Below, piece after piece: positions 25,951 through 51,110 of a DNA stretch of 64,000 bases (its first letter is position 1; each line of letters begins with the position of its first letter). The translations under genes were made by a program, and so were the position numbers. This DNA comes from a plasmid, in sequence record NZ_CP137558.1. The stretch is one strand, 5' to 3'. Below the pieces are notes generated by a model, which did no database searches, was not told the DNA's origin, and worked only from the letters and a program-made list of their open reading frames with translations.

Positions 25951-26865
25951 CTAGTTCTCCGGATCGAAGATTTCACCATAATATACCCAACCCTCAGTCC
26001 AGTCGTCTATCTTGACACTCGTAAGGTTCATTTCCGGCTTCATCTCGCTGTATTCCAGGTTGACAATATACTTGCCGCTCGGCTTCATCACGGGAGCTTT
26101 CAGGTCGTAGCGTGTACTGTTACCATCAGGAGTTTTGAGCACGATAAACAGATTGGTGTTTTGAACACCATCGCACGTCGGCATCAGGTACATTGTTTTT
26201 GTTACAAACATGTTATCCAACATCGTTATTCCGGAAGGAATATCGCATTCTTTCTTAGTCCTTGTTGGCGTGCCGAAAGTTCCATCTTCATTTTGCTGCA
26301 AGGCAAACAGTCCGGTGGCAACATTCAATACCTTTCCCGTGATAGCCGTATGCAGAGGAGCCCCTTTTATGTTGATGGTGAGCTCGGCAAGCACACGTCG
26401 CATTTCGCTTTTGACGATATGGTGCACATTTTCATGGTCTATGATGATGTCTGTTACACCATAATAGGCATGTTCGGGTGCTGCGTCCGTACCCGACAGA
26501 CTGATTACCAGATTGTTCATGTTGTCAACGCCTCTAGTCTGCTCACTGATGGTGAACGGAGCCACCAGGTTGGTGGTGGTGAGAATGCGATAGTGACCTT
26601 TGGGCATGTCATATCGCTCGCTTGCCATTTCCTGCGCACTGCCATGCTGGCTTTGCTCCACCAGCGTGCCATTTTCTGCATTCATGATCCACGTCTTCAC
26701 GTCCTTCACTTCCGTGCCCTCGTCGGTCTCGTCAGCCCAGTCGAGAGATATCGACAGGCCTCCGTCTCCTTCGCCATCATGCACGTCGTGGTCGCAACTA
26801 GCCAATAGGCATGGGATGCATGCCAGCACCCATAGCCAGATATTCAGTTTGTTTCTTGTTTTCAT
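25951..26865 (-). CDS. fimbrillin-family lipoprotein (FimB/Mfa2-like type V pilus subunit)
   Basis: Lipoprotein signal LLASCDHD; ~300 aa; C-terminal IDDWTEGW motif shared with other pilin-like genes here. Confidence 0.45.
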   Translation of the reverse strand: MKTRNKLNIWLWVLACIPCLLASCDHDVHDGEGDGGLSISLDWADETDEGTEVKDVKTWIMNAENGTLVEQSQHGSAQEMASERYDMPKGHYRILTTTNLVAPFTISEQTRGVDNMNNLVISLSGTDAAPEHAYYGVTDIIIDHENVHHIVKSEMRRVLAELTINIKGAPLHTAITGKVLNVATGLFALQQNEDGTFGTPTRTKKECDIPSGITMLDNMFVTKTMYLMPTCDGVQNTNLFIVLKTPDGNSTRYDLKAPVMKPSGKYIVNLEYSEMKPEMNLTSVKIDDWTEGWVYYGEIFDPEN

Positions 26866-26885
26866 TGTCTGTATTGTTTTATGGG

Positions 26886-27644
26886 TTACTGTTTGGTGAG
26901 ACTGATACCCAGTCTGATGCCGCTTTCCCAGACATAGTTGTTCTTGTGCAGATATTCCGGCATGCCGTCCAGGCGTTTGCCCGTGAGTCGGGTCAATCCC
27001 GAAAAGATGCCCAGTTTCAGGCGGTCATTCAGCCGATAGCCCACCTGCAGGTTGGCACCATATCCCAGATGCCAGTGGGTGGCACCTTTCTTCACGGTTG
27101 TTCCGTCCGTCAGGTTCTGGATATCTGCCTTGGTGGTCACGGCATATAGATGAGGCGATGCAGCCACCTCCCAGCGGCTGTTGGCAGTTTGAGGAAACAG
27201 AGCCAGCAGGTTGATGTTTACTCTTGCCCCCAACTGTGCCATCTTTACCTGGCTCTTCAGCTGGGTATACTCCCAGCAGTCCATTCCCAGGACGCTGGCC
27301 TTGTATATCGTGCCGTCGCTTCCCAGCCAGTAGTTGCGTTCTGCACAGCAGTCTTGCGCCGCCAGATTCATCTCTCCGTATTTTGCCGATAGCTCAGCCG
27401 ACCAGATGTTGTTGAAACGATAGCCGCCGTAAAATCCGGCGTCCCAACCGAGTCGGGTCTTGTCGTGTCCGAAACTCGAGAAAGTAGAGAAGCCGAAAGG
27501 CATACCTCCATCTATGCCGACATACCATCCTTGCTCATCTTTCTGCACACCGTCGTTTACTTCCGCCCTTGTTACAGAAAGCGGAAGGATGGCAGCAAGC
27601 GTTGCAATCGGTAGCCCAATTTTAGTTCTTAAAGATTTTTTCAT
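26886..27644 (-). CDS. outer-membrane beta-barrel protein (OmpA-like/OMP_b-brl family)
   Basis: Signal MKKSLRTKIGLPIATLAAILPLSV; alternating aromatic beta-strand pattern; C-terminal GIRLGISL.. Confidence 0.55.
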   Translation of the reverse strand: MKKSLRTKIGLPIATLAAILPLSVTRAEVNDGVQKDEQGWYVGIDGGMPFGFSTFSSFGHDKTRLGWDAGFYGGYRFNNIWSAELSAKYGEMNLAAQDCCAERNYWLGSDGTIYKASVLGMDCWEYTQLKSQVKMAQLGARVNINLLALFPQTANSRWEVAASPHLYAVTTKADIQNLTDGTTVKKGATHWHLGYGANLQVGYRLNDRLKLGIFSGLTRLTGKRLDGMPEYLHKNNYVWESGIRLGISLTKQ

Positions 27645-27711
27645 ATAAGTTCGTTTAGTTAAACTTGTCAGTATGAAGAATGCTTCTATGGGCATTACTT
27701 CTAAATATGCT

Positions 27712-27848
27712 GCAAATATAGCATTTTTTTCCGATATAAGGTGTCTCTTTCCTCAAAAAAAGTGTCTACTTCCTATGTTCAAGGTGTCGCATTGGTACCA
27801 ATGCGACACTCCTGTTAACATAAAAATACATATAAATACGTATTTTAG
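27712..27848 (-). promoter_or_regulatory. conserved pilus-locus promoter block with 26-bp perfect palindrome GTGTCGCATTGGTACCAATGCGACAC (27784..27809)
   Basis: Near-identical blocks at 42983..43170 and 50918..51110; three GGTGTC half sites upstream; second palindrome aaatacgtattt. Confidence 0.7.
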
Positions 27849-28037
27849 TGTGCATCAGAAATCCACTTCCAGTGCTGCCCGTTTTCCTGGGATTTCTTTG
27901 TTATGTAATAACTTTTTTAATCGGTAAGAGTGAAGCAGGGCGACTTATCCTTACGATAGTGGATAGTTTTTGCGATGTTTTCTTGCGGGTCTCGAAAAAT
28001 TATCGTACTTTTGCTGCGTGATGAAAAGATATAATAT

Positions 28038-29450: not shown

Positions 29451-29461
29451 TGTTCTTTGTC

Positions 29462-29551: not shown

Positions 29552-29580
29552 CGCAGATCTTTCCTGAACTTTCGCCTTGT

Positions 29581-29902: not shown

Positions 29903-31675
29903 TTATTCTGTTATTGCATTGCCGTCTTTATCAAGAACGGTGCATTTGCCAATCTGCCATTTGGCAGGGAGACAATTGGCATTTGCTTTCAGTGCTTCGT
30001 AAGCCGCCTTATCTTGTACTTTGAGTGTGCGGTTTTGTACGCTTTGGTCTGTTCCGGCATTATTGAGCCAGTAATACAAACAAGATGATCCGCTTAATGT
30101 AATTTCTTTGCTTGGTGCTAACATTGTAACAGATGACAGGTTTGTACAATTATTGAACATAGCGTCACAGCAGCTTCGATAAAGAAATTCTATAGACAAT
30201 TCAGCAGATTTGAGATTTGTACACCCCGAGAACATATTGGCATAGCATTCCACTCGTGAGATTTTTGCAGGCAATTTTGGGGCAGTTTTGAGATTTGTAC
30301 ACCCCGAGAACATACTGGCATAGCAGCAGTCTGCTAACGCTGTAGCCTTTAATTCTGGGGCAGTTTTGAGATTTGTACAGCCTGAGAACATACAGGCATA
30401 GCAGTTTCTTGCTAATGTTGTAGCAGGCAATTCCGGGGCAGAAGTTAATACACTGCAATTTTCGAACAATTTAATGAACCTCGCATTCTCTGTATTGACT
30501 GTAGCATAGTTATTCCAGTCAAGCAATGTGCGGATATCACCTGTGCAAGCCACTGGCACATTACTTTTCGTAAATGTGATGGTAGCATATGTAGCATATT
30601 GAACGGTGCCTGTTGCCGTTCCTGCGGTATTTTTTCCACGCAAACGAAGGTCGCCATTTGCGCCACCAAATGAAATTTCTGTGTCTTTCTTGACAGCTGC
30701 CCATTCGTTTCCACCAACAGAATAGTCAAGTTCAGAGATGATATAGTCATTATAGGTTGTCATCTTAAATGTTTGAGGATCCTTTGCCGTAAAGGTGACG
30801 TATGGGTAACATTCTGCTTTACCGCCATCAATCTTATCAGTTCCCCAATCAGCCACAGTAACATTACCTATAGTCACCTTATTCTTACCCACTATAAGAT
30901 TGTAGGTATAGCTCTTGCCGGCTTCCAAGGCTCCTGTCTTTACAACAAGCGGAGTCTCGGTGGATTCATTGTCAGTGAAATAGAGCTTTCCCTCTACTTT
31001 TCCAGGAATAACCAGGGCAGTATAGGTTGTGCCGATTCCACCCTCACCCTTCTGCAAAGGCTTGATATTGACGGTAGATGTTTCGCTGGCTTCAGTAGAT
31101 GCCTTGCTTGCGATACGGATATGGTTGACCTTGGTGTCGTCGGTGAACTGGTCGTTGAAACTCTGGATGTTGAGAATCAGACGGGCAGTCTTGCGCACCA
31201 ATGTCACATCAAGCTGGCGGTTACCAGGAATTTCAGTAAGGTCGGTTACCGCTGCCGTCATATAATCTGATTTCGCAATCGCCTCTGCACTGCTCTGGTC
31301 TTCCTGGATATAGCCTTTGCTGAAGGAATTCTTGCCATCAGCAGGATACCAGCACTGGAAAGTGAGGTTGCTATTATCCCATACCAGATAATTTTCACTA
31401 CCTGGCTGCCAGTCGTTGGTGCCCTTATTGTAGGTATAGGTGATCGATGTGCCGTTATTGCTGACGCCCATCACATCACCAGTATTAAAACTCTTCTGTC
31501 CGGCTTCATCTGCTGCAGCCGGATTGCTTCGGGTGAAGATGCTGCCCACCGAAGCCGATACATGAACGGCATTCGGGTCGCTGAGCCATGTATTACTGTT
31601 GTCGGAATCTGTAGCGCAACCAGCCAGCAATAAGCCGGCTGTTGCTACAAGACCCAATATCTTCTGATATTTCAT
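29903..31675 (-). CDS. fimbrillin-like lipoprotein fused to C-terminal BspA-type leucine-rich repeat domain (pilus tip adhesin-like)
   Basis: Lipobox LLLAGCATD; pilin-like N-domain ending ..VADWGTDKIDGGKAE; C-terminal 26-aa repeats MFSGCTNLKTAPELKATALADCCYAS. Confidence 0.6.
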   Translation of the reverse strand: MKYQKILGLVATAGLLLAGCATDSDNSNTWLSDPNAVHVSASVGSIFTRSNPAAADEAGQKSFNTGDVMGVSNNGTSITYTYNKGTNDWQPGSENYLVWDNSNLTFQCWYPADGKNSFSKGYIQEDQSSAEAIAKSDYMTAAVTDLTEIPGNRQLDVTLVRKTARLILNIQSFNDQFTDDTKVNHIRIASKASTEASETSTVNIKPLQKGEGGIGTTYTALVIPGKVEGKLYFTDNESTETPLVVKTGALEAGKSYTYNLIVGKNKVTIGNVTVADWGTDKIDGGKAECYPYVTFTAKDPQTFKMTTYNDYIISELDYSVGGNEWAAVKKDTEISFGGANGDLRLRGKNTAGTATGTVQYATYATITFTKSNVPVACTGDIRTLLDWNNYATVNTENARFIKLFENCSVLTSAPELPATTLARNCYACMFSGCTNLKTAPELKATALADCCYASMFSGCTNLKTAPKLPAKISRVECYANMFSGCTNLKSAELSIEFLYRSCCDAMFNNCTNLSSVTMLAPSKEITLSGSSCLYYWLNNAGTDQSVQNRTLKVQDKAAYEALKANANCLPAKWQIGKCTVLDKDGNAITE

Positions 31676-31702
31676 AGTTGTTCTATTTTAAGTTCATATT
31701 CT

Positions 31703-32758
31703 TTAATCTGTCTCAAGAGGCTTGTCACTAGTGATTTCTGTCCATGGAGTAGCGGAGATGCTGCCACCCTTCAACAATACCACATCATTACCCATGCTAA
31801 GATTGAGGGTATATCTGTAGCCGCTCTTCAGCTCGACTGGTTCTGCAGAAGTCCATTCATAGAGCTTGCCGGCTGTCATCAAAGACACCTTGAAGGTGTT
31901 GGCTCCAACGGTCTGTGGGATGGCAATGCAAGAGAAACGTGAGATGGCGTTCTTTTCTGGATCTGCTTTCTTATCTGCATTTTCAGCCGGTGTGAAGGAA
32001 CCTTTGGTGGTGGTAATGTCGGTAGCAGCAGCTTCTTCGCTGGCTGTTACGACACTAGCAGCGTTTGTAACATTTACACTTGCCTCAATTTTGGTTCCTC
32101 CTAAGGTCACCTTTACGATAGGGGATTCTTTAAGAACCTCAGGCTTGTTGAACTCGGTTCCCAAAGTCACAACGATATCAATCATACAGAAAGCATGGTT
32201 GAACTGGATACTCAGCTTCTTATCCACGAGACTTGTGCCAGGCTTGAAGTCTTTTGCATAATAGTACAACAAGTCGTTATTGTCAGACGATGTAGACTGG
32301 TCGTCAGCCACGCTATAAGTTATAGACTGGATAGGCTGGGTACTTCCCTCAGCATAAACACCATTGAATTTGCCATTTGGAGCCGGAGCAAAAGCCACGA
32401 TATCTACGGGTTGCGTGTCTTTCTGCCAAAGCAGTGTCTCTGAGCAGTTCCAAGCTCCATTATCATCCTTTGTGAACACCTTATTAACATAGGTATATTT
32501 TTTAGCCAAAGTGGCGTTCTCGTTCTTATTCACCACGGTCAGAGATAAAGGCTTCTCCAGTGGAGTGCCTGCTCCCTCAGCACGAGTCTTGGCATTGTTC
32601 ACTCCTGCAGTAACGCGGATGATGTTATCACTAGGATAATTGCTCTGTGACAGTTCGTCCTCGCTAGAGCAACTGGTAATCATGGCTGCAGCCATGGCTG
32701 ATATTGCGAAAAACTTGATAGCTTTCATAATCGTTCTATTTTTAATGTTATGCCTCAA
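31703..32758 (-). CDS. fimbrillin-family lipoprotein (type V pilin-like), probable start 32728
   Basis: Signal MKAIKFFAISAMAAAMITSCSS; C-terminal ..SATPWTEI. Confidence 0.5.
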   Translation of the reverse strand: MRHNIKNRTIMKAIKFFAISAMAAAMITSCSSEDELSQSNYPSDNIIRVTAGVNNAKTRAEGAGTPLEKPLSLTVVNKNENATLAKKYTYVNKVFTKDDNGAWNCSETLLWQKDTQPVDIVAFAPAPNGKFNGVYAEGSTQPIQSITYSVADDQSTSSDNNDLLYYYAKDFKPGTSLVDKKLSIQFNHAFCMIDIVVTLGTEFNKPEVLKESPIVKVTLGGTKIEASVNVTNAASVVTASEEAAATDITTTKGSFTPAENADKKADPEKNAISRFSCIAIPQTVGANTFKVSLMTAGKLYEWTSAEPVELKSGYRYTLNLSMGNDVVLLKGGSISATPWTEITSDKPLETD

Positions 32759-32855
32759 ATCCGCAACCTATAGGGTTTAGTGGGATTTTGCTTGCAAAGC
32801 GACAAAATTCATTTTATTGTACATATTTCTTGCACAACAGAAATGTCGCAGACAC

Positions 32856-35081
<2,226 letters not shown>

Positions 35082-35554
35082 AAACAATAGGCCACATGCA
35101 ACTGTAAATGTTTAGTTATAGGTAGGGTAGCATAAGTTAAAATGCTATTCTGCCTTTTAAAAGTATGGTATACATTCCAGAGAGAGATTGGATATGTTCC
35201 CGCCTACCGATAGTGCCAAAAACGTAGTGGATATGTTTCCGAGAACGGATACGCTCAAATGACATTCATTCTGTCCTCTCGAGCCATGTTGAGAGCGTGG
35301 TTCTGTTGACTAAAGTACATAATTGATAGTGTGAAAATGCTTGAAATATAAGGCTTATCCGAGGATTTGGACGTAAATCCAGGTCCTCGGATTTTCCGCG
35401 TTTTAGAGGCTGCAAAGAGATGAATTTTTATAGTTGGATAGACAGAAGTGTTGATTTGGGGTTGGATAGACAAAAATATTGACATAAGACCATTGCCATA
35501 ACCTAAGAGAAGAAGAACGGAGAGAAATAACTTTTTAAACGAGGGGGAATTCAG

Positions 35555-36295
35555 ATGAAAGAAAACAAATATGATGATAATATATTTTTTCAAAAATACA
35601 GTCAAATGAGTCGCTCACAGCAGGGACTAGCCGGTGCAGGAGAATGGGAAACATTGAGAAAGCTGCTGCCGGATTTTAAAGATAAGCGTGTGCTTGATTT
35701 AGGATGCGGCTATGGATGGCACTGTATTTATGCGATGGAACACGGAGCGTCTTCTGTTGTAGGTGTTGATATTTCTCATAAAATGCTCGAGGTAGCCAAA
35801 GAAAAAACACATTTTCCACAGGTTGAATATAAATGCTGTGCTATAGAAGATGTGGAATTCCCAGAGGAGAGTTTTGATGTAATATTAAGTTCACTTGCGT
35901 TTCACTATGTAGCAGATTATGAGATTTTAGTAAAAAAGATATATAGAATACTGAAGTCTGGTGGTAATCTAGTTTTTACGGTTGAACATCCTGTTTTTAC
36001 TGCCTATGGAACACAAGACTGGCATTATAACGAAAAAGGAGAAATACTGCATTTTCCGGTGGATAATTATTATTATGAGGGCAAACGGACAGCTGTGTTT
36101 TTGGGAGAAAAGGTTACAAAATATCATAGAACACTGACCACATATCTAAATACACTGCTTTCAAATGGTTTTATAATAAATCATATTGTGGAGCCGCAGC
36201 CGCCGGAAAACATGATGGATATTCCGGGGATGCAGGATGAAATGCGCCGTCCCATGATGCTGATTGTATCGGCGAACAAAAAAGTGTATAGATAG
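35555..36295 (+). CDS. class I SAM-dependent methyltransferase (Methyltransf_11-like)
   Basis: VLDLGCGYGWH motif I; post-I acidic; ..KSGGNLVFTVEHP. Confidence 0.75.
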   Translation: MKENKYDDNIFFQKYSQMSRSQQGLAGAGEWETLRKLLPDFKDKRVLDLGCGYGWHCIYAMEHGASSVVGVDISHKMLEVAKEKTHFPQVEYKCCAIEDVEFPEESFDVILSSLAFHYVADYEILVKKIYRILKSGGNLVFTVEHPVFTAYGTQDWHYNEKGEILHFPVDNYYYEGKRTAVFLGEKVTKYHRTLTTYLNTLLSNGFIINHIVEPQPPENMMDIPGMQDEMRRPMMLIVSANKKVYR

Positions 36296-36332
36296 AACTA
36301 AAACACCTATAAGATATAAATGGAGGTAATTT

Positions 36333-36825
36333 ATGTTTAAAGAAAAAATTATTATAGAGATGAAAGAAGTATTCAAAGAAATTCCTTTTGGCATAGAGCA
36401 TACTTTCAAAGTTTTGAAAAATGCAGAAGATATAATGAAAGGAGAAAATATCGGAGAGGAAGAAAAAGAATTCATCAGTATTATTGCTATACTACATGAT
36501 ATTGGTGCGGTTGAAGCACAAAAAAATACGGTTCTATTGATGGTGTCTATCAAGAAAAGGAAGGACCAGAAGTAGCGAAAGAAATATTAAAAAAGGTAGG
36601 CTATAACAAAAATATTGATAGAATATGCTTTATAATAGGCAACCATCATACTCCATCTAAAATTGATGGACTTGATTTTCAAATACAATGGGAAGCTGAT
36701 TTGCTTGAAAATTTAACGGTTATGGATAAAGAAAAAGAACAGGAAAAGATAAAAAAGTGTATAGATGAAAACTTTAAAACAAACACAGGAAAAAGGATAG
36801 CTTATAATCGCTTTATTTTAGATTA
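36333..36825 (+). CDS. HD-domain phosphohydrolase, interrupted by apparent -1 frameshift in A7 run at 36520-36526
   Basis: ILHDIGAVEAQK then frame switch to KYGSIDGVYQEKEGPEVAKEIL..GNHHTPSKIDGLDFQIQWEADLLENL. Confidence 0.6.
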
Positions 36826-36849
36826 GTAGTAGATTATTACAGTTATGTA

Positions 36850-37904
36850 TTTTACTCAAGTTTCGGATTTAGGTTTTATGCAGTCTGAGCGATCAGTTGC
36901 ATGGCCTTGAACCTGCGGTTATCCCGTATAATTTGCTCCATCAATTCGTTCTCGTCAATGGTAAAAATCTCAGCCACGATTGCTATTACATCAATAATGA
37001 TTGACCAGATCTTTTCCACGACGGTGAGCTCGTGTACGCCTTCATATATATCGGCGAACAATCCTCCAATGGTCTCTTCACCATGCTCTTCAGGCGCTCA
37101 AGCTTGGATACGAAATACTCTTCCTTGCGTTTTTCGGTCTGGCAGTCTCTGTCACGCTTGCGGTTGTAGCGCCTCTCGCGCTGCCGGGCCGTAAGACCTT
37201 GTTCCTTGCCATCGACCTTCCCTCTCTCGCCGTGAATCGAGAAGTCCACGACAAATTGAGAGCGGCCGTCGCTCCAGCACAGGGCCAGCAGCTTGTAGCC
37301 GAGAATGCACCGCTGAAACACGTGCGAGAATATCTTGCCAATACACTCCATCCTCAATCCGGTCTTCGGCAGGTCGGAATCATCCACAATAAGCACTGCC
37401 GGAAGATGGCTCTTTTGATAGTCTTTCCTTATGGTCACGGCCTTGATGAGATGACAGGCGATGTGCCAGATGATGTTGCTAGTCTATATTGTCCTTGGCC
37501 ATAAACGAATAGAGTAGGTCCTTCTTACCCCCGAACAGTTTCGAGATTGACGATCCGGCATAATGAGAAAAACCCGGGACGGCCATAAACGGCAGAATCA
37601 ATATGATCTGGAAAAGTTGAAGGTTGGTAAGCTGACAGTTCTCACGTTTTTTCCCTCCGAGATCTTTGTCTGAAATCCTCATCCCCTCAAGGAGGGTCAT
37701 AAACTTGGAAAATGCGGGATTGATTCGTTTTCCCGTGAAAAAGTTGCGGATCTCCGATGGAATTTTTGTAATTTTGCTCATGGCTTTGAGTGATTGTAAT
37801 TAGTTGTTTGGGCACCTCTAAATTACTAAATTTCCGTGACATACGGAAATCCTCAAAGCCTTTTTTATGCCCAAATCTATCCTCTCAACCTAAATCCGAA
37901 ACTT
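36850..37904 (-). mobile_element. small IS-like element with 22-bp terminal inverted repeats and fragmented transposase (three ORF pieces)
   Basis: ttactcaagtttcggatttagg at 36850 and exact RC at 37883; ORFs 37479..37781, 36986..37438, 36876..37061 read as one transposase across two frame breaks. Confidence 0.55.
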
Positions 37905-38190
37905 GAGTAAATTATAATTATGAGATGCTACGTGCTTTTGTTCAATATACCCTAAACGTCGATTTAAATGCGCCTGTGATAAAGGATTTAGTTGAAAAGT
38001 ATAAGGATATAGAACAATTTAATAGGAGCATAACAGATAAATACGTTGCAATATGTAAACGCTTTTAATATTTGAATTTAGCCGTTTATGTAGAATGAAG
38101 GTGTGCAAACAAACAGACCCTGAAAAGGGTCTCACCCCCGTTAACCGCAATGTCAAAGACTTGCGGATGGCCAGATGACTCCTATACATC

Positions 38191-38323
38191 CGACCCCAAC
38201 GGGGTCGAACCATATAATCTGTAGAAAGGTTCGACCTCCGTTGGGGTCGTGGATTGGGAAGGCACTTCGACCCGCACATTGTATCATGTGCGGTTACTTG
38301 AAGTTCGACTCCCGTTGGGGTCG
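38191..38323. repeat. three copies of hairpin motif GTTCGACyCCsGTTGGGGTCG
   Basis: cgaccccaacggggtcg, gttcgacctccgttggggtcg, gttcgactcccgttggggtcg. Confidence 0.7.
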
Positions 38324-38736
38324 ATGGCTCGTCGTTATTCTGAATCTTAGCAAATCCTCTCTTTTTTAATGAACTGTGTGCTTGATCACTGAAAATAATC
38401 CTTATTTTTGCCACGAGAGTTTTACGAAAGATAAATAGATAAAGTATTGGAAAAGAAACATAACTGTCAGCAGTGCCCACTGAGGCGGCGATACGACCGT
38501 TCACCCAAGTCATTGTTGGGTCGTTTTTGGCGATGGCACATCAATTTCTGTCCGGGATGGAAAGCCTATTTCCTGTCGCTGAGCGAAGAGGAACGGCATG
38601 TATTGAGAAAGCAATACGCTTTTCATAAGCCTCAAATCCGCAACTAAGTCCTTCATCGTCCTATTTACGTGTACACGTTCTCTCATTACTGAATTATTAG
38701 ATAAATTGAGGCTGAAATACCCACTTCTGCCTACAA

Positions 38737-40226
38737 TACCCCCTTACCCCACAATGCGACTTGAGACAATACGCAGTATCATACCCATAAGTTGTAGTCG
38801 TCATCCAAAATCAGTCTGGAATACATCTGCGTAAGCATTATTACAGGTATAGATATTCAGCACATACCACCTTGATGTTCTGATCCATTTGGCTGGTACA
38901 GAGACAAATCTGAAGACAAACGCTTTTATGCGACTTGTTTTATTGGGTCCGAACCTCTTTACGTCAAGTCTTTGGATAATGACCTTGTAGAAGTTACGGA
39001 TAAGTGCTGTAAGAAGAAGGAACACTGTGTTCTCTGCCATGAAGGATTTGGGCAATCTGGACCATCCGAAACCATTGTTCATGTCATCGAAGATGCGCTC
39101 CTTTCCTCCGCGGAGGTTATAGAACTCGACAATCTCTCTTACGGAAGGCTCGTAGTCGTTGGTCAGGATGCAGCGGTATGTGTATTCTCCTTCCCAGAGG
39201 TCAAGCTCACCGTCCATCCGTTTCCGCCTTTGAATCACAAGCCGGTATGTCTTGCCTTTCCACTTCTCTACAAGAATGGAATTCAGCTCAAACTCAATGC
39301 CGTTGATTTCTCCCCTCTTCCAGCCTCTGAGAGCGAAGAGGTCATTGTAGAGCGAACTACAGCGGTTGGCACGGATATAGAAGGTCTTGCAGTGGGTGGC
39401 AACCTCTTCCACGATCTCTTCAGAGCACGAGCCGCAATCAGCTCTGAAACGATTGATAACAAGATTGTTCTGTTCAAACCTTTCGAAGAATCTCTTCAGC
39501 GTGTCCTTCTGATGGAAACGGACGTTTGTGTTGCCGTCGCTGTTCTCAATGCCGACAATCAAATCTCCAATAACCGCCACACCTGGTCGATAACCAAGGA
39601 ACTTCTTGTATGTATGCTTTGCATCATATTTCTCTGTTTCTATGAACTGGTGGTCGAAATCAACATCATACATCTCACCCTCTTTCAGCTGACCAGCTGC
39701 ACACATACAATTGAGCAGTAAGGTATTGAGGGTGTCAGCCGTATTGAAATCGTAGTTCTTACCCGTATCTGACGTGTATGAAATGTTCTCCTGCGTCAGT
39801 TCCTTTATCGCTCTGAGGATAGTGTCAGAGCTGCAGGTACGAAGTGTCGGATGAAGCGAGAGATGGGGCATCAAATGAGTTGTGACATCCTCAATACATG
39901 AGCCGCCACAGAAGTAGATGCTCATGAGAGAACGGATGATTTCGCTGTATTGATAACCATACAGCCTGCATCTTAGACCGAGGGTTGTGTCAATTACATA
40001 TGACAATGTGGAGTCAAATTGCTCCATCATTGCAAATATTCCTCCAAAAGGAGTGGTTTCTCAGATTTTATTGCTTTCTTTGCCATGTCTGTCGGGTTTG
40101 ATACATATTTTGATTTGCAACACTAAGATAGGTGAAAAATCTGACATGACAAAATCCTGAGCAACTTTTTGTTGCTCAGGTACTTAAAAAGTTATATTTA
40201 TAATAGTGTTGCGGAATTAAGGTTAT
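38737..40226 (-). mobile_element. IS1380-family insertion sequence, copy 2 (direct orientation to copy 1)
   Basis: Flank homology with copy 1 (ccccttacccca..gcgacttgag.. at right; ..tagtgttgcggaattaagg at left). Confidence 0.65.
38801..40030 (-). CDS. IS1380-family DDE transposase with 1-bp deletion near 5' end (N-terminal 19 codons out of frame)
   Basis: Copy 1 gagtgagtttctcag vs copy 2 gagtggtttctcag at ~40055; upstream reads MAKKAIKSEKPLLLEEYLQ*. Confidence 0.7.
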   Translation of the reverse strand: MMEQFDSTLSYVIDTTLGLRCRLYGYQYSEIIRSLMSIYFCGGSCIEDVTTHLMPHLSLHPTLRTCSSDTILRAIKELTQENISYTSDTGKNYDFNTADTLNTLLLNCMCAAGQLKEGEMYDVDFDHQFIETEKYDAKHTYKKFLGYRPGVAVIGDLIVGIENSDGNTNVRFHQKDTLKRFFERFEQNNLVINRFRADCGSCSEEIVEEVATHCKTFYIRANRCSSLYNDLFALRGWKRGEINGIEFELNSILVEKWKGKTYRLVIQRRKRMDGELDLWEGEYTYRCILTNDYEPSVREIVEFYNLRGGKERIFDDMNNGFGWSRLPKSFMAENTVFLLLTALIRNFYKVIIQRLDVKRFGPNKTSRIKAFVFRFVSVPAKWIRTSRWYVLNIYTCNNAYADVFQTDFG

Positions 40227-40260
40227 GTTATAATCTTATCTTATTGATATTTCTCCGATT

Positions 40261-41163
40261 TTAATCGAATGCCTCGCCATGGAAGGTGTTGCCATTCTCC
40301 CAATCAGAAATCTTCACTTCGTCGAGAATCACCTGGTCACGACCTACCTCCAGGTTGATGGTGGTAATCTTGCCGCTCTCAAACGTGAACGGAGTTTTGT
40401 TGTCGTAGATGAAAGTCTTATCACCGATGGTGATGGCAATCTTCTGAATGCCATTCTGAGGAATGAGCACGGAAACATACTGGGTGTTGGCTGCCGTAGC
40501 AGGAACCTCGAAATCAGCCTTGGCTGTAGTCGTTGTGGTCACTGCCTTGGTGAGGTAGTTGATGGTAGCCTCATTTATGGCATCCGAAACCACCACGTTC
40601 TTTACGGTAGGAGTGCCGCCCCACTGGTTCTTGTAGGAAAGGTTCACCACCATCTTTGCCATCACGTGGGTGAATTCGAGCTGCACGGGATCCTTGGCAT
40701 CCTTGGTATAGGAGAGACCATTGGTGTTTACTGCCACCAGCAGGTCGCTTGCCGCCTGGTTTTCTGCATTGAAGGTATAGGTGTCGGCAGTAAGGTTGTC
40801 AACGTTCTTGGTAGGGTAGATGCCGATGAAGTAATGCTTATCCACATTGTTCTTCCACAGCATCTGTGGAGTGGCCACCCAAACCTTGTCAGTGAGCTTG
40901 TTGATGGCGTTGTTCACCACTCTTCCAGCGGCAGCAGGAACATTTTCTGCACTTCCTGTCCAGGCATACACGCTGATTTCATCTCCTTCAGAGAAAGTCT
41001 GTGTTCCCTTGGCGTCCGTAGTGATACGGGTCATCTTGCCGATGCTTGTAGAAACGGTGATTGACTTAGGCGCCTCGGTGCCTATTGTATTCTCGCTGTC
41101 TGAGCAGCTGCCCAGAGTCATGGTCATTGCTGCAAGAGCAATCATGTAATACTTTGTTTTCAT
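40261..41163 (-). CDS. fimbrillin-family lipoprotein (type V pilin-like)
   Basis: Lipobox MTLGSCSD; C-terminal VKISDWENGNTFHGEAFD. Confidence 0.5.
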   Translation of the reverse strand: MKTKYYMIALAAMTMTLGSCSDSENTIGTEAPKSITVSTSIGKMTRITTDAKGTQTFSEGDEISVYAWTGSAENVPAAAGRVVNNAINKLTDKVWVATPQMLWKNNVDKHYFIGIYPTKNVDNLTADTYTFNAENQAASDLLVAVNTNGLSYTKDAKDPVQLEFTHVMAKMVVNLSYKNQWGGTPTVKNVVVSDAINEATINYLTKAVTTTTTAKADFEVPATAANTQYVSVLIPQNGIQKIAITIGDKTFIYDNKTPFTFESGKITTINLEVGRDQVILDEVKISDWENGNTFHGEAFD

Positions 41164-41209
41164 GTTTATTCTTTATTTATAAATTATATATTATCTAATG
41201 GGTTCTATT

Positions 41210-42940
41210 CTATTTTCCGTTATTTTCATACAGCACGGTAGTATTTGTTGCATCTTTCTTCCAGTTGTCAGGAAGATAACCTTTGCCTTCCAACGCAGTA
41301 TAGGCATCCGCATCCATTACTTTGAGTGTGCGGGAACTTACGGTTTTGTCGGTTCCGGCATTATTAAGCCAATTATAGCAGCAATCAGATTTTTTCGAAA
41401 TTTGGTCGCTTGGTGCCAACATAGTGACGGTTGACAATTTTGTACAACCATAGAACATTCTAGAATAGCAGCTTGCTGCTAACGTTGTAGCCTTTAATTC
41501 TGGGGCAGACGTGAGACTTGTACAACCATAGAACATTCTAGAATAGCAGCTTGCTGCTAACGTTGTAGCCTTTAATTTTGGGGCAGAAGTGAGGCTTGTA
41601 CAACCATAGAACATACTAGAATAGCAGGATTTTTCTAACGTTGTAGCCTTTAATTCTGGGGCAGACGTGAGACTTGTACAACCTTCGAACATATGATAAT
41701 AGCAGTAATTTGCTAATGTTTTAGCAGGCAATTCTGGGGCAGAGGTCAATGCTGCGCAGCTATAGAACAAAAAACAGAATCTGGCATTTTGGGTATCTAC
41801 TGTTTTATAGTATTCCCAGTCCAGCAGCGTGCGGATGTCGCCTGTGCAAGTTACTTTCACATTTTTATCAGTAAATGTGATGGTTGAATAATTACTCCAG
41901 TTAGATGCTGTTCCATAAATGTTCGTGCCACGTAAACGAAGGGTGCCATTTGTTCCACCGAAGGTAACTTCTTCATTTTCCACAACATTCTTCCATTCGC
42001 CATTATTTACAGAATACTGAAGTCCTGAGATGGTGTATTTTCCTTTGGTTATCATTTTAAACGTCTGCTTAGTATCTGCCGTAAAGGTGAAGTCTGGATT
42101 ATATTCCGCTTTACCACCAGTAATTTCACCTGTAGTCCAATCTTTCACGGTAATACCGGAAACGGATACCTTGTCCTTACCCACGGTGAGCTGATAGGTG
42201 TAGCTCTTGCCGGCTTCGAGTGCAGGGATGCCGGCGAGCGTTTCAGTTGTTGTTTTGCTTGCTCCTTCTGATACATCAAGAGAGAGGAAGGTTGCGGAGT
42301 TTTGGGCAGCGCATGGCTTGATGAGCGCATAGAACTTGTTATCGCTGTGCTTATACGCTTTCACACCACAGATGCTGAGGCTATTGACGTTATCAATATT
42401 GGCTCCGGCATACTGGTCCTTGAAGCCATCAATCATTACTACCACTCTCGCCATTTTTCGCTCCATGGTGAGTGTGAGGTTATTGCTATTGTTGGTATTG
42501 GTTTGCGGACCGCTAAACGACATGAAGTCTGCGGCAGCAAGCGATTCTACGCTGGTGTATTCCGTAGGCTGGGTAATGGTACCATTGAACGAAGAAGGGT
42601 AGTAGGCGGTGAAATTCATCGTCTCGCTTTCCCATTTCAGGAACTTGTCGCCTTGCGGCTGCCATTCATTGTTGTTTAACTGATAGGTTACGGCATCCTG
42701 GCCATCAGCCTGGACGCTGATCATATCACCATCTTTAAACTTCTTCTGCGCTTCGGCATCCCCCAGCGGAAAGCTGCGGGTGAAGCCATCGGCAGATGCT
42801 TTACCTACTTGCGCAGTGATGCGCACAGCGTTAGGGTCGCTATGGAATGCAGAGAGGAGGTCTTCTGATTCGGAGCATGCCGACAGCGCCAGAATCATGG
42901 TCATTGCTACAAGAGCAATCATGTAAAGTTTTGTTCTCAT
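41210..42940 (-). CDS. fimbrillin-like lipoprotein fused to BspA-type LRR domain (paralog of 48908..50877)
   Basis: Lipobox LALSACSE; ..GITVKDWTTGEITGGKAEY; 26-aa LRR repeats TSAPELKATTLAASCYSRMFYGCTSL. Confidence 0.6.
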   Translation of the reverse strand: MRTKLYMIALVAMTMILALSACSESEDLLSAFHSDPNAVRITAQVGKASADGFTRSFPLGDAEAQKKFKDGDMISVQADGQDAVTYQLNNNEWQPQGDKFLKWESETMNFTAYYPSSFNGTITQPTEYTSVESLAAADFMSFSGPQTNTNNSNNLTLTMERKMARVVVMIDGFKDQYAGANIDNVNSLSICGVKAYKHSDNKFYALIKPCAAQNSATFLSLDVSEGASKTTTETLAGIPALEAGKSYTYQLTVGKDKVSVSGITVKDWTTGEITGGKAEYNPDFTFTADTKQTFKMITKGKYTISGLQYSVNNGEWKNVVENEEVTFGGTNGTLRLRGTNIYGTASNWSNYSTITFTDKNVKVTCTGDIRTLLDWEYYKTVDTQNARFCFLFYSCAALTSAPELPAKTLANYCYYHMFEGCTSLTSAPELKATTLEKSCYSSMFYGCTSLTSAPKLKATTLAASCYSRMFYGCTSLTSAPELKATTLAASCYSRMFYGCTKLSTVTMLAPSDQISKKSDCCYNWLNNAGTDKTVSSRTLKVMDADAYTALEGKGYLPDNWKKDATNTTVLYENNGK

Positions 42941-42982
42941 ATTCTTTAATTATTTAAATTTTAGACTTTTTATTTCATAGGT

Positions 42983-43170
42983 ACAAATATAGCATTTTTT
43001 CCCGAAAAACGGTGTCGTGATTTTCGAAAAAGGTGTCTACTTCCTATGTTCAAGGTGTCGCATTGGTACCAATGCGACACCACAATTAACATAAAGATAC
43101 ATATAAATACGTATTTTAGCGCATATATTCAAGGAGTCTCATCACAGGGTGTATTTTATGGTATGTAAAG
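42983..43170 (-). promoter_or_regulatory. conserved pilus-locus promoter block, palindrome at 43055..43080
   Basis: See 27712..27848. Confidence 0.7.
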
Positions 43171-45200: not shown

Positions 45201-45305
45201 GGGGATTACATCACCAATCATCTGCGGAATCTGCGGCATCTGCGTGACTTTAAATCCAAGCCAAGAATCTGTGTGAATCTGTGAAATCTGTGGGACAAAG
45301 AATAA
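45201..45305. repeat. ATCTGCG/ATCTGTG short tandem repeat block (family copy 2)
   Basis: catctgcggaatctgcggcatctgcgtgac..gaatctgtgtgaatctgtgaaatctgtgggacaaagaata; near copy at 51448..51573. Confidence 0.75.
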
Positions 45306-46085: not shown

Positions 46086-46086
46086 C

Positions 46087-48900: not shown

Positions 48901-48907
48901 GGGGATG

Positions 48908-50877
48908 TTATTGTTTTGGGGTATAATACTTCACAGTGGTATTTGTTGCATCTTTCTTCCAGTTGGCAGGAAGATAATCACTATTTGTTTCTAACGCATT
49001 ATAGGCAGCCTCATCTTTTACTATGAGTGTGCGTGTAATTCCATCCTTTGTTCCAGCACCGTCCAACCAATAATTAAAGGAAGAAGATGTATTTTTAATT
49101 TTGTCGCTTGGTGCCAACATTGTGACAGATGACAAATTCTCACAACCATTGAACATATTACAGTAGCAGGCTGTCGCTAATTCTGTAGCAGTTAATTCTG
49201 GTGCAGAGGTGAGACTTGTACAACCATAGAACATTTCATAATAGCAGTAACCAGCTAATTTTTTAGCAGGCAATTCTGGTGCAGAGGTGAGACTTGTACA
49301 ACCATAGAACATTTCATAATAGCAGTAACCAGCTAATTTTTTAGCAGGCAATTCTGGTGCAGAGGTGAGACTTGTACAACCTCCGAACATACCAGAATAG
49401 CAGTCATCTGCTAATGTTGTAGCAGGCAATTTAGGTGCAGAGGTGAGCTTTGTACAAAGTCTGAACATGCTATCATAGCAGTAATTTGCTAATGTTGTAG
49501 CAGGCAATTCAGGTGCAGAAGCGAGATTTGTACAACTCCAGAACATTTCTCGATAGCAGCTATTTTCTAATGTTTCAGCAGGCAAATCTGGGGCAGCCGT
49601 GAGACTTGTACAACCTGCGAACATACTATAATAGCAGAAGTCTGCTAACGTTGTAGCAGGCAATTCTGGGGCAGAGGTTAATACAGCGCAATCTTTGAAC
49701 AAATAACAGAATCTGGCATTGTTGGTCTCTACTATATTATAGTTTCTCCAGTCCAGCAGCGTGCGGATGTCGCCTGTGCAAGCTACATTCACATTATTAT
49801 CAGTAAATGTGATGGTTGAATATGTAGACCATTCAGACGCAGTTCCATTAATGTTCGTGCCACGCAAGCGAAGGTCGCCATTTGCTCCACCGAAGGTGAC
49901 TTCTTCATTTGCCACAACATTTTCCCATTTGCCATTATTCACAGAATACTGAAGCCCAGAGATGGTGTAATCATCTGTGATTGTCATCATAAACTTTTGC
50001 TCCCCATTTGCCTTAAAGGTGATGTATGGGGTAGGGCATTCTTCTGTTTTACCTCCAGTAATATCCCCCGTAGTCCAATCTGCCACGTAGATACCGGAAA
50101 CAGATACCTTGTCCTTACCCACGGTGAGCTGATAGGTATAGCTATTGCCGGCTGTGAGAGCAGGGATGCCGGCGAGCGTTTCTGTTGTTGTTTTGCTTTC
50201 TCCTTCTGCTACATCAAGAGAGAGGAAGGTTGCGGAGTTTTGGGCTTCGCATGGCTTGATAAGGGCATAGAACTTCTTATCGCTGTGCTTAAACGCTTTC
50301 ACACCACAGATGCTGAGGCTATTGACGTTATCAATATTGGCTCCGGCATACTGGTCCTTGAAGCCATCAATCATTACTACCACTCTCGCCATTTTTCGCT
50401 CCATGGTGAGTGTGAGGTTATTGCTATTGTTGGTGTTGGTTTGCGGACCGCTAAACGACATGAAGTCGGCGGCAGCAAGCGATTCTACGCTGGTGTATTC
50501 CGTAGGCTGGGTGATGGTACCATTGAACAAAGAAGGATAGTAGGCGGTGAAATTCATCGTCTCGCTTTCCCATTTCAGGAACTTGCTGCCCTGTGGCTGC
50601 CATTCATTGTTGTTTAACTGATAGGTTACGGCATCCTGGCCATCAGCCTGGACGCTGATCATATCACCATCTTAAATTTCTTCTGCGCTTCGGCATCCCC
50701 CAGCGGAAAGCTGCGGGTGAAGCCATTGGCAGATGCTTTACCTACTTGCGCAGTGATGCGCACAGCGTTAGGGTCGCTGTGGAACGCTGAGAGGAGGTCT
50801 TCTGACTCGGAGCAGGAAGACAGCGCCAGAATCATGGTCATTGCTGCGAGAGCAATCATGTAAAGTTTTGTTCTCAT
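48908..50877 (-). pseudogene. fimbrillin-LRR adhesin paralog disrupted by 1-bp deletion (~50673-50678)
   Basis: Copy at 42710 aagaagtttaaagatggt (KKFKDGDMISVQ) vs here aagaaatttaagatggtg (KKFKMVI*); ORFs 50659..50877 and 48908..50662. Confidence 0.7.
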
Positions 50878-50917
50878 ATTCTTTAATTATTTAAATTTTA
50901 GGCTTTTTATTTCCATG

Positions 50918-51110
50918 GTACAAATATAGCATTTTTTTCCGAAAAACGGTGTCGTGATTTTCGAAAAAGGTGTCTACTTCCTATGTTCAAGGTGTCGCAT
51001 TGGTACCAATGCGACACCCCAATTAACATAAAGATACATATAAATACGTATTTTAGCGCATATATTCAAGGAGCCTCATCCCAGGGCGTATTTTATGGTA
51101 TGTAAAGATA
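50918..51110 (-). promoter_or_regulatory. conserved pilus-locus promoter block, palindrome at 50992..51017
   Basis: See 27712..27848. Confidence 0.7.

Follow-up and report, generated by a model that had tools for sequence, protein, structure and literature searches.

In a gut Prevotella sequence, pilus and adhesin genes are preceded by a 142-nt block that is predicted to act as their promoter; this conserved cassette is widespread in gut Prevotella. In the window (the whole 64,000-nt stretch of DNA analyzed) the block occurs three times (copies A, B, and C; Table 1), each copy lying 5' of a minus-strand gene and all three in one orientation. From the arrangement of its sites we propose, with a probability of roughly 0.6, that each block is a promoter cassette dependent on an AraC-type activator and reading toward the minus-strand gene. 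The cognate regulator probably belongs to a Prevotella-specific family in which seven transmembrane (TM) helices precede an AraC-type domain (7TM-AraC), an assignment that rests on adjacency and site geometry.

Table 1. Coordinates of the blocks, their elements and the associated genes in the window.
Feature	Position	Strand	Remarks
Mfa2-type pilus anchor	25951..26865	-	second gene of unit A; Pfam
OMP_b-brl outer-membrane beta-barrel	26886..27695	-	first gene of copy A unit; Pfam
Block, copy A	27707..27848	-	predicted promoter cassette 5' of OMP-Mfa2 unit; repeat family D5 and alignment
-7 box, copy A	27713..27720	-	TATATTTG
DR1, copy A	27741-27750	+	GTGTCTCTTT
DR2, copy A	27762-27771	+	GTGTCTACTT
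DR3, copy A	27784-27793	+	GTGTCGCATT; direct-repeat span 27741..27793
Palindrome, copy A	27784..27809	.	DR3 and inverted repeat 27800-27809
Fimbrillin-like + BspA-LRR (Mfa_like_1 + LRR_5)	29903..31675	-	fourth gene of ancestral operon B
Fimbrillin-like (Mfa_like_1)	31703..32758	-	third gene of ancestral operon B, now severed from promoter
Composite transposon, 7.5 kb	32753..40216	.	inserted within operon B
Fimbrillin-like lipoprotein (Mfa_like_1)	40261..41163	-	second gene of operon B; Pfam
Fimbrillin-like + BspA-LRR (Mfa_like_1 + LRR_5)	41210..42940	-	first gene of operon B; Pfam
Block, copy B	42978..43119	-	predicted promoter cassette of long pilus/adhesin operon B
-7 box, copy B	42984-42991	-	TATATTTG
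Repeats, copy B	DR1 43012; DR2 43033; DR3 43055		inverted repeat 43071-43080
Palindrome, copy B	43055..43080	.	28 nt including flanking G/C, 43054-43081
Duplicate of operon B first gene	48908..50877	-	pseudogene; Mfa_like_1 + LRR_5 over 48908-50662 (Pfam)
Block, copy C	50915..51056	-	belongs to segmental duplicate of B
-7 box, copy C	50921-50928	-	TATATTTG
Repeats, copy C	DR1 50949; DR2 50970; DR3 50992		inverted repeat 51008-51017
Palindrome, copy C	50992..51017	.	extends to 28 nt
Second palindrome AAATACGTATTT	27834; 43105; 51042		exact at all three positions

Anatomy and origin of the block

Each block ends in a -7 promoter box of the Bacteroidota type, TATATTTG, located exactly 71 nt from a perfect 26-nt palindrome, GTGTCGCATTGGTACCAATGCGACAC. 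The stretch between box and palindrome contains GTGTCnnnTT repeats 21-22 bp apart, whose starts are separated by steps of 21 and 22 bp in A, B, and C alike. In Segatella copri (S. copri), dRNA-seq located the -7 consensus at >70% of mapped transcription start sites and the -33 box at only 15% of them. The sequence TATATTTG fits the S. copri -7 consensus and, as a TAnnTTTG-type box oriented toward the gene, marks a predicted sigma-A (-7/-33) promoter. Relative to the predicted start, the first direct repeat (DR1), which begins 28 nt from the -7 box, covers approximately -33 to -46, DR2 approximately -54 to -68, and the palindrome, which consists of the last direct repeat (DR3) and one inverted copy, approximately -76 to -103; a T-rich spacer lies between DR1 and the -7 box, and the gene follows thereafter. 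The block therefore has the geometry of an AraC/XylS-type promoter, with asymmetric repeats at ~21-bp (two-turn) phasing, the proximal one abutting the -35/-33 region. DR1 is degenerate in the window copies (GTGTCTCTTT, GTGTCGTGAT), which counts against the proposed cassette model.

The initial annotation had described a shared block before three transcription units, with a perfect 26-bp palindrome, three GGTGTC half-sites and a second palindrome, AAATACGTATTT. The shared block was confirmed as a 142-nt unit, and the 26-bp palindrome is exact in 3/3 copies, with 0 matches in shuffles of the window. The half-sites are exact in copies B and C, but the middle one of copy A reads AGTGTC. The second palindrome is indeed exact in all three copies; however, it is limited to close relatives and is absent from L011, a related Prevotella genome that carries the orthologue of locus B.

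Copies B and C share ~95% identity across the 5' end of the gene and its upstream region, as had been noted for the leaders of the 41210 and 50877 loci, and 88.7% over 1.7 kb. Over the block, copy A matches B and C at 85-88% identity, and the alignment showed unrelated flanks. Segmental duplication, raised in the initial annotation as a possible simple explanation of the blocks, accounts for the B/C pair but not for copy A. Because copy A has just the 142-nt module in common with B and C, and because >100 independent contigs show the same architecture before different genes, the comparisons support the conclusion that recent duplication alone does not account for the block; they likewise support a cis-regulatory element common to adhesin and pilus genes rather than a chance repeat. 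The module is kept in the locus orthologous to copy A (L035; 90% identity over 3.4 kb), and in L011 conservation with copy B extends from the gene start through the palindrome and a further ~45 nt, where similarity falls away sharply. DR2 carries TAC in all three window copies and GCA in both orthologues.

One 142-nt block before non-homologous genes, between unrelated flanks, is also what would be expected if the promoter cassette were itself a small MITE-like mobile element inserting 5' of genes, and short-read assemblies break inside the block, as at dispersed repeats. We regard such an element as very unlikely, given that the block has no terminal inverted repeats or target-site duplications and is always oriented toward the downstream gene. 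In addition, a plasmid collection contained no match to the block, the two viral-contig matches from a loose-pattern search have a center shorter than that of the window palindrome, and the exact palindrome had only 4 genome matches, hence a low copy number.

Pilus genes and the divided operon B

The fimbrillin-like plus LRR proteins, the other fimbrillin-family lipoproteins, and the outer-membrane barrel recognized in the initial annotation were borne out by Pfam (Mfa_like_1, LRR_5, Mfa2, and OMP_b-brl). The window contains type V (Mfa/Fim-type) pilus features, namely Mfa2, LRR_5 fusions, and four Mfa_like_1 genes (five with the frameshifted duplicate), and the pilus gene order agrees with that of canonical operons. 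Canonical operons begin with a gene for a 407-aa OmpA-like protein; by blastp, the barrel product of unit A matches the N-terminal barrel of this protein at 69% identity, and the anchor product of unit A is 47% identical to the canonical operon Mfa2. The frameshift reported for the duplicated gene of locus C corresponds to a 1-nt deletion ~204 nt after the ATG, near 50673.

In L011, the sequence matching window positions 30629-32752 is directly contiguous with that matching 40217-41192. This contiguity indicates that the pilin at 31703-32758 and the LRR gene at 29903-31675 are distal operon B genes, split off by an IS1380-erm(G) transposon. The unit order had been read as differing between copies (pilin then LRR versus LRR then pilin), a reading overturned by the L011 arrangement, in which the pilin-LRR pair is the tail of operon B. 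Similarly, IS1380 does lie just upstream of 31703..32758, but this gene belongs to operon B and never stood as a unit whose own block was lost. The transposon cargo comprises two IS1380-family copies (32921-34207 and 38801-40030), erm(G) (34315-34995), and a methyltransferase, and the region is 94.6% identical to an ErmG-bearing Phocaeicola plasmid over 91% of its length.

Phase-variable expression of the adhesins had also been suggested, and Bacteroidales often use invertible promoters for surface structures. The palindrome could then be the core site of a tyrosine recombinase (e.g., the integrase at 24297-25493) acting by inversion, deletion, or shuffling: it has 11-13-bp inverted arms around a short center, much as core sites of the dif or lox type do, its three copies fall within 23 kb, and integrase genes are nearby. 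This reading is highly improbable, since all three copies are in direct orientation, L011 and L035 are collinear with the window, and the window integrases sit among mobile-element genes. The -7 boxes are not surrounded by inverted repeats in any copy, the nearest case being a weak and imperfect match of 11 nt located within genes B and C; with no inverted repeats flanking the promoter, nothing structural in the window points to phase variation. Bacteroidales invertons are likewise cis elements common to several surface-protein loci with recombinase genes in the neighborhood, but they differ from the Prevotella blocks in that no inverted repeats bracket the promoter of the latter, and the related loci have an AraC-family gene beside the cassette instead of a recombinase or linked invertase.

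Related arrays, their hairpins, and the 7TM-AraC family

The same layout was found in >100 gut-metagenome contigs and 4 Prevotella species genomes, and the genome-wide palindrome search suggested in the initial annotation gave an exact match at 4 loci only, all Prevotella, in 185,579 species genomes. The metagenome loci were picked by a pattern demanding two GTGTCGCATT repeats, and the conservation of those two repeats is therefore partly by construction. The 71-nt distance between box and palindrome is kept in 97 of 119 arrays, counts that are not independent because many loci are orthologues from different samples; they fall into 24 clusters at <90% identity, which retain the phased repeats between unrelated flanks and before different downstream genes. 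The genes 3' of the arrays consistently encode surface structures (OmpA/OMP, Mfa2, Mfa_like_1, LRR_5, DUF285), either as type V pilus operons or as LRR adhesins of the BspA type. At canonical loci an 80-91-aa leaderless ORF (small membrane protein) comes first and precedes either a type V pilus operon or the gene for a giant BspA/DUF285 adhesin.

Homologues of a 388-aa P. merdae protein, detected by tblastn with 43-72% identity over full length, adjoin most arrays. In 75 of the 111 related arrays with enough flank, the C-terminus of a homologue lies <=400 nt upstream on the same strand, its stop codon falling between 17 nt upstream of the palindrome and the inside of the palindrome's 5' arm. 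A direct-repeat array follows every AraC-TM 3' end that has a downstream operon, and only a stand-alone clade (L009, L030, L092) lacks an array at this position; the P. merdae-type stand-alone gene has the exact GGTACC cassette upstream in 10/10 contigs. Downstream of a divergent paralogue (L040, L094) stand a distinct repeat in 4 copies and a -7 box, and module L117 has the TACTT variant in 4/4 repeats, which indicates that regulator and repeat sequence change in step. Pfam assigned the regulator C-terminus to HTH_18/HTH_AraC, and in the AlphaFold model 7 TM helices and a disordered linker lead to an AraC DNA-binding domain, which has a TM-score of 0.8 to 2k9s and 3w6v. The family comprises >5,400 clusters under the sole name "AraC family transcriptional regulator [Prevotella]". 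No AraC-TM gene or homologue was found in the window, which makes its three copies orphan targets.

As RNA, the copy A palindrome folds at -23.1 kcal/mol (z = -5.8); the window hairpins range from -22 to -23 kcal/mol and are followed by CTTGAAC, with neither the T-run nor the co-directional upstream gene of an intrinsic terminator. A T-run follows the hairpin in 73/75 arrays with an upstream AraC gene versus 8/36 orphans, and in most relatives hairpin and T-run together look like the terminator of the upstream AraC-family gene. The palindrome arms vary in compensatory fashion, as in a hairpin, at positions that stay constant in DR1 and DR2. In the GAGTAG and TCCTT classes DR3 diverges from DR1/DR2 and the partner arm compensates, which argues for a hairpin constraint over protein contact at DR3.

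These features bear on the view of the initial annotation that the palindrome is a stand-alone operator of a dimeric regulator. Under this alternative a symmetric dimer, repressor or activator and not necessarily AraC-type, would bind the palindrome, and the direct GTGTC repeats would be auxiliary half-sites. It would fit the perfect palindrome with 13-14-nt arms in 3/3 window copies, its retention in orphan cassettes that have no T-run or upstream gene to terminate, and the identical 26-mer in L030 and L035, both found without selecting for the palindrome. Nevertheless, the palindrome is the distal end of a phased direct-repeat array, and its center ranges from 4 to 8 nt across the family, shifting half-site spacing and helical phase. 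The arms co-vary where DR1/DR2 do not, L092, which is orthologous to the stand-alone regulator locus, has a decayed palindrome but intact DR1 and DR2, and no other DNA-binding protein is conserved near the related arrays. We therefore consider a dimer operator unlikely.

The terminator-like hairpin could also be a relic of a lost upstream gene, with no dedicated regulator involved, the repeats being slippage copies of one arm and the likeness within the window resulting only from duplication and gene conversion. B and C clearly represent a segmental duplication, the TAC at DR2 in A/B/C as against GCA in L035/L011 is consistent with gene conversion, and what the repeat units have in common with the hairpin is one arm, the loop, and the opening bases of the second arm (e.g., L018), as tandem duplication predicts; the T-run distribution given above is also in keeping with a relic. 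However, the 71-nt spacing and phased repeats persist over the 24 clusters, paralogous regulators precede differently coded arrays of the same design, and neutral remnants would not hold register or conservation while neighboring intergenic DNA diverges, so that this explanation appears decidedly unlikely.

Proposed activation model and comparison with known systems

In the proposed AraC-type cassette, the GTGTCnnnTT(C/G)(C/G) repeats, two helical turns apart, would most likely be regulator monomer sites, with DR1 standing in for the -33 element. The candidate regulators, Prevotella-specific one-component proteins with 7 TM helices and then a cytoplasmic AraC-type DNA-binding domain, would activate rather than repress, recruiting RNA polymerase as AraC does at araBAD I1-I2. 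At canonical loci, where the regulator gene is directly upstream, the hairpin and T-run would end its transcript and the cassette would drive the next operon. Because the window copies lack both a neighboring regulator gene and a T-run, we conjecture that all three are controlled in trans; a good candidate is a stand-alone 7TM-AraC gene as in P. merdae, which is itself preceded by the identical GGTACC-type cassette. In this way the cassette may couple the two parts of a pilus locus that is split into unit A, with the OMP and the Mfa2 anchor, and operon B, with the fimbrillins and the LRR tip proteins.

More tentatively, gut Prevotella may carry a large paralogous family of 7TM-AraC membrane sensors, each wired to one adhesin/pilus operon through a terminator-operator-promoter cassette with a repeat address code (GCATT, TACTT, TCCTT, or the unrelated ATTCCTCTTTATTTTATCA), in which orphan cassettes such as the three window copies mix codes and are trans-controlled by a self-regulating master 7TM-AraC of the core genome. 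If so, this would be an undescribed signal-responsive network setting the surface adhesin repertoire of the cell, and operon activation would be tied to regulator read-through by way of the dual-use hairpin.

AraC/XylS systems have, as is proposed for Prevotella, asymmetric sites of ~14-20 bp, direct or sometimes inverted, with ~21-bp phasing. From general knowledge, the AraC/XylS activators of Proteobacteria pilus and adhesin operons (Rns/CfaD, AggR, ToxT toxboxes, and MelR, besides AraC at araBAD I1-I2) resemble the proposed system in the AraC-type DNA-binding domain, the ~21-bp site phasing, a promoter-proximal site that abuts or replaces the -35/-33 element, and the frequent linkage of the regulator gene to the pilus operon. 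The Prevotella regulators differ in having a 7-transmembrane N-terminus instead of a soluble ligand/dimerization domain, and the promoters in being of the Bacteroidota -7/-33 type; the regulators are predicted to act on type V (Mfa/Fim-like) pili and BspA-LRR adhesins, and the putative distal site is fused with the terminator hairpin of the regulator gene. ToxR/ToxS and TcpP/TcpH of Vibrio and CadC are likewise generally known as inner-membrane DNA-binding regulators of colonization or pilus genes, and a small membrane protein is co-encoded with ToxR and TcpP, as is the 80-91-aa ORF in Prevotella. However, ToxR, TcpP, and CadC combine an N-terminal OmpR-type winged helix with a single TM helix, whereas the Prevotella proteins have 7 N-terminal TM helices and a C-terminal AraC domain, and the Prevotella small membrane protein is a target gene and at most a putative partner.

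Canonical loci share with intrinsic (Rho-independent, often bidirectional) terminators an 11-13-bp stem, reaching ~22 bp wherever pairing extends into flanking A and T runs, a 4-8-nt loop, and a T5-6 run behind the hairpin, all placed directly after the stop codon of the regulator gene, as well as compensatory arm changes. In contrast to such terminators, the window copies are without a T-run or upstream co-directional gene, and the 3' arm of the hairpin is the first unit of a phased array at fixed promoter distance. The iterons of theta-replicating plasmids are also 22-bp tandem direct repeats with one inverted copy beside a promoter. Unlike with iterons, no Rep initiator gene was seen beside the Prevotella arrays, the window neighbors being ordinary genes, and the arrays are chromosomal, multi-copy, and always located 5' of surface-protein genes.

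Repeat cassettes of the window

The initial annotation had described a block shared by three transcription units and built around a perfect palindrome, GTGTCGCATTGGTACCAATGCGACAC, with a second palindrome, AAATACGTATTT, beside it. Both were recovered: the 26-nt palindrome occurs in three exact copies in the window and in none of the dinucleotide-preserving shuffles, and the second lies ~25 nt beyond each of these copies. In a comparison of the window with the related loci L009, L010 and L011 from other genomes and metagenomes, AAATACGTATTT was not kept in any of the three, and it is thus not a feature of the cassette family. Copy A of the 142-nt repeat is 85-88% identical to copies B and C and has unrelated flanks. 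B and C, the likeness of whose leaders had been noticed, are parts of a longer duplicate into which the downstream gene extends with its 5' end; identity is 95% over the first 300 nt and 88.7% across 1.7 kb. Against L011, a Hadza Prevotella locus, conservation runs from the gene start to ~45 nt past the palindrome and then collapses.

Coordinates of the cassettes and of associated features in the window
Feature	Position	Strand	Description
142-nt repeat, copy A	27707-27848		Repeat finder; all copies in the same orientation, 5' of minus-strand genes
142-nt repeat, copy B	42978-43119		As copy A
142-nt repeat, copy C	50915-51056		As copy A
-7 box TATATTTG	27713-27720 (A), 42984-42991 (B), 50921-50928 (C)	minus	Ends each block
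26-nt palindrome	27784 (A), 43055 (B), 50992 (C)
DR2	27762-27771 (A), 43033-43042 (B), 50970-50979 (C)		GTGTCTACTT
Composite transposon	32753-40216		7.5 kb; erm(G) and a class I methyltransferase gene between two IS1380-family copies; inside pilus operon
Ancestral operon B	42940-41210, 41163-40261, 32758-31703, 31675-29903	minus	Cassette B, then LRR fusion, fimbrillin, fimbrillin, LRR fusion
OMP ORF extension	27647-27695		In-frame, 16 codons, MPIEAFFILTSLTKRTY
74-nt inverted pair	25869-25942, 54068-54141		92% complementary, 28 kb apart
GC-hairpin-rich direct repeats	51147-51319, 53848-54020		95-99% identity (GTCCCCGAAGGGGGCGAAC...); further inverted copies at 53763-53825
105-nt repeat	45201-45305, 51449-51553		93% identity; short ATCTG(C/T)G iterations
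Integrase and relaxase region	6699-13746		Two tandem tyrosine integrases (Arm-DNA-bind_5 type), DUF3408, MobA/VirD2 relaxase
Further IS transposases	18025-19251, 21592-22590, 47008-48696

The sequence that ends each block is the -7 box of Bacteroidota promoters; in Segatella copri, more than 70% of the primary start sites found by dRNA-seq have this box, and only 15% have a -33 box. Between this box and the palindrome of A, B and C lie repeats headed by GTGTC, with starts 21 and 22 bp apart. The palindrome thus consists of the third repeat (DR3) and one inverted copy. If transcription is taken to start a few nt below the box, DR1, the repeat nearest the box, falls at ~-33 to -46, DR2 at ~-54 to -68 and the palindrome at ~-76 to -103. 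No known RNA family was matched at the Rfam gathering threshold in 24000-55000.

The DR2 form of the window cassettes is replaced by GTGTCGCATT both in L035, the orthologue of locus A, and in L011, the orthologue of locus B. That the three bases have changed in concert although the copies are unlinked suggests gene conversion or co-evolution with a trans factor. The TACTT of window DR2 is also the code of one whole module of contig L117, where it stands in 4/4 repeats.

Cassette family and its linked membrane regulator

Across 185,579 species-representative genomes, the exact palindrome was found in only four places, all Prevotella, namely a Hadza metagenome-assembled genome (twice), UMGS1787 and P. 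merdae. Two consecutive GTGTCGCATT units occur in at least 120 metagenome contigs, nearly all from human gut; the few soil contigs with tandem repeats among the listed GTGTCGCATT matches are unrelated. The Prevotella-type contigs among the matches listed share a constant design, in which two or three direct repeats are closed off by an inverted copy at the end. Of the 119 arrays listed, 97 have a distance of exactly 71 nt between palindrome and -7 box; these fall into 24 clusters at <90% identity. Such an invariant register across diverged clusters is a misfit for the weaker reading of the cassettes as non-functional relics.

The palindrome centre varies in sequence and in length, from 4 to 8 nt (GTAG, CTAT, GGTGGGGG, GGTACC), and at least four arm variants, all with complementarity kept, are found (GTGTCGCATT, GAGTAGCATT, GTGTCTCCTT, GTGTCTACTT). 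An alignment of 36 distinct hairpins, drawn only from arrays in proper register and with arm classes that represent few independent events, had 95.5% of its cells paired and double changes in 5 of 11 pairs, a covariation reached by no shuffle. Twelve Logan short-read contigs, all below 2 kb, carry the exact window OMP protein; seven of them (L001-L007) end 91-115 nt upstream of the ATG, that is, in or just short of the palindrome, which shows that the cassette acts as a dispersed repeat in those genomes. A plasmid origin of the block was rejected, with no match among plasmids, as was a phage origin, the loose palindrome pattern having matched only two viral contigs with a centre shorter than that of the window palindrome. 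An iteron or replication origin was likewise rejected: no Rep gene was seen next to the arrays, and those of the window have ordinary genes as neighbours.

The P. merdae cassette lies upstream of the gene for a 388-aa protein that combines a multi-helix membrane domain with an AraC HTH at the C-terminus. When this protein was used as a tblastn query, most metagenome loci among the matches listed were matched over its full length at 43-72% identity. In these loci the regulator gene lies upstream of the cassette and is co-directional with the downstream operon, and among the matches listed its C-terminus is found ≤400 nt upstream in 75 of the 111 arrays that have at least 400 nt of flank. In most linked loci, the regulator stop codon is found anywhere from 17 nt ahead of the palindrome to 3 nt into its 5' arm; arms of the GAGTAG class themselves supply the stop TAG. 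The hairpin folds at -22 to -35 kcal/mol, and TTTT(T) follows it in 73/75 regulator-linked arrays, whereas only 8/36 orphan arrays, with no adjoining regulator gene, have this run (among the matches listed). In the canonical arrangement of regulator gene, cassette and surface-protein operon, the hairpin looks like the intrinsic terminator of the regulator gene.

A tblastn search with 148 family members (E ≤ 1) gave only noise in the 64-kb window, with neither a regulator homologue nor a relic of one beside the cassettes, and the relic of a lost neighbouring regulator gene was rejected on this result. Copies A, B and C are therefore orphan copies; they are of the GGTACC subtype and are without a T-run.

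The AlphaFold model of the regulator (mean pLDDT 73) has seven TM helices, a disordered linker and a DNA-binding-type domain. The modelled C-terminal domain superposes on the DNA-binding domains of AraC and AdpA with a TM-score of ~0.8, and the likeness of the modelled membrane part to 7TM bundles is generic only. At 90% identity, the family falls into more than 5,400 clusters, and those members that have a name carry only the label "AraC family transcriptional regulator [Prevotella]". Every regulator 3' end with a downstream operon is followed by some repeat array, which is not so in the stand-alone clade of P. merdae-type genes. A repeat array upstream of the regulator gene is absent from operon-linked genes and present only in the stand-alone clade (L009, L030, L092). 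Genes of this clade are flanked by argS and an RNase H gene, and 10/10 further contigs have the exact GGTACC cassette upstream. A divergent regulator paralogue is followed by ATTCCTCTTTATTTTATCA in four (L040) or two (L094) copies, ~30 nt apart, and then by a -7 box.

A proposed activator-dependent promoter and its alternatives

The best-supported reading, to which we assign a probability of about 0.6, is that the cassette is an AraC-type, activator-dependent promoter. 7TM-AraC monomers would bind to the repeats, which are asymmetric and phased; the repeat closest to the box would replace the missing -33 element, and the distal inverted copy might serve as a head-to-head pair, as the terminator of the regulator gene, or as both. 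Several features fit this reading: the register is fixed, the repeats are phased at two turns, the regulator gene is adjacent, the code changes with the paralogue of the regulator, and the stand-alone clade would regulate itself. The independent variants are too few for a correlation of HTH recognition-helix residues with the repeat code. While the anatomy of the cassette and its associations were observed, we infer binding by the regulator, the positive sign of regulation and the control in trans of copies A, B and C.

The palindrome had initially been taken for the operator of a dimeric regulator. A pure dimer operator is the weaker reading, because its centre is variable and because in L092, a 71%-identical orthologue, the palindrome has decayed with DR1 and DR2 intact. 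The phase-variable expression that had been named as one possibility gained no structural support: an inverted-repeat search around each promoter found none that bracket the -7 box of copies A, B and C. On this result an inverton or recombination site, also a weaker reading, was rejected; relatives have no linked recombinase. The cassette would make a poor MITE, terminal repeats being absent.

Functionally closest to the proposed promoter system are the AraC/XylS regulators of fimbrial operons (AraC I1-I2, Rns, AggR, ToxT), and the ToxR/TcpP-type one-component regulators resemble it in having a membrane-bound regulator. The Prevotella system differs in its 7TM-AraC domain architecture, its Bacteroidota promoter type, its targets (type V pili and BspA adhesins) and a hairpin that would be both terminator and end of the repeat array. 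In the literature, covered incompletely so that an earlier description is possible, the motif string was met only in unrelated primers, and no description was found of TM-AraC regulators of Prevotella type V pili or BspA adhesins.

Prevotella (Segatella) are dominant gut commensals, and to our knowledge almost nothing is known about the regulation of their surface adhesins and type V pili. Linked to thousands of uncharacterised membrane-embedded AraC regulators, the conserved cassette is easy to recognise and gives a direct means to predict the adhesin regulon of any Prevotella genome, and together with the regulator it is a likely route from environmental or host signals to pilus expression. 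The principle is unsurprising, but the system is testable and widespread, and the gut genus in which it occurs is important and poorly understood.

Downstream genes and the transposon in operon B

In canonical loci outside the window (e.g. L018, L014, L040, L051), the first ORF starts 4 nt past the -7 box and is thus probably leaderless; the S. copri dRNA-seq data include ~35 leaderless mRNAs. This ORF encodes a conserved 80-91-aa two-helix membrane protein (MKEILETIPRIELALII...) with no Pfam match, which might be a partner of the membrane regulator. It is followed either by a surface protein of 700-1,330 aa, with BspA/DUF285 repeats in several cases, or by a type V pilus operon encoding an OmpA-like barrel, Mfa2, several fimbrillin-like lipoproteins and an LRR tip.

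For the window, Pfam bore out the original gene calls of three Mfa_like_1 + LRR_5 fusions, two fimbrillin-like lipoproteins, an Mfa2-type anchor and an OMP beta-barrel, and the frameshift reported for gene C, downstream of cassette C, was traced to a single-base deletion ~204 nt past the ATG. L035 matches locus A at 90% identity. The OMP of unit A has 69% identity to the barrel encoded by the first gene of the canonical operon, and the Mfa2 of the unit has 47% identity to the canonical Mfa2; unit A is the head of a canonical-type type V pilus operon. The N-terminal extension of the OMP ORF lies ahead of the signal-peptide Met, is conserved in L035 and offers a candidate start.

The "pilin then LRR" unit (31703-32758, 29903-31675) had been thought to have lost its block. 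In L011, however, the sequences of 30629-32752 and 40217-41192 are directly contiguous, which implies a single ancestral operon B from whose promoter this unit was severed; the AAA-ATPase gene adjoining cassette B is also conserved there. The intervening erm(G) composite transposon, 94.6% identical to a Phocaeicola massiliensis plasmid segment, split the pilus operon and thereby probably silenced its two distal genes. Its IS1380-family copies are ~75% identical to each other, and one is 98% identical to IS942.

Other repeats and mobile elements were also seen in the window. The 74-nt inverted pair brackets the whole pilus region, each arm holding a terminator-like hairpin (AGTCTGCTAGCAGTGATGCTGGCAGACT) and a T-run, and is probably a reused 3'-end element. 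The integrase and relaxase region looks like a mobilisable element or its remnant. The GC-hairpin-rich direct repeats lie on either side of a sugar-transferase gene (52258-53691), and the 105-nt repeat recurs beside these loci in gut contig L035 (3657-3753).
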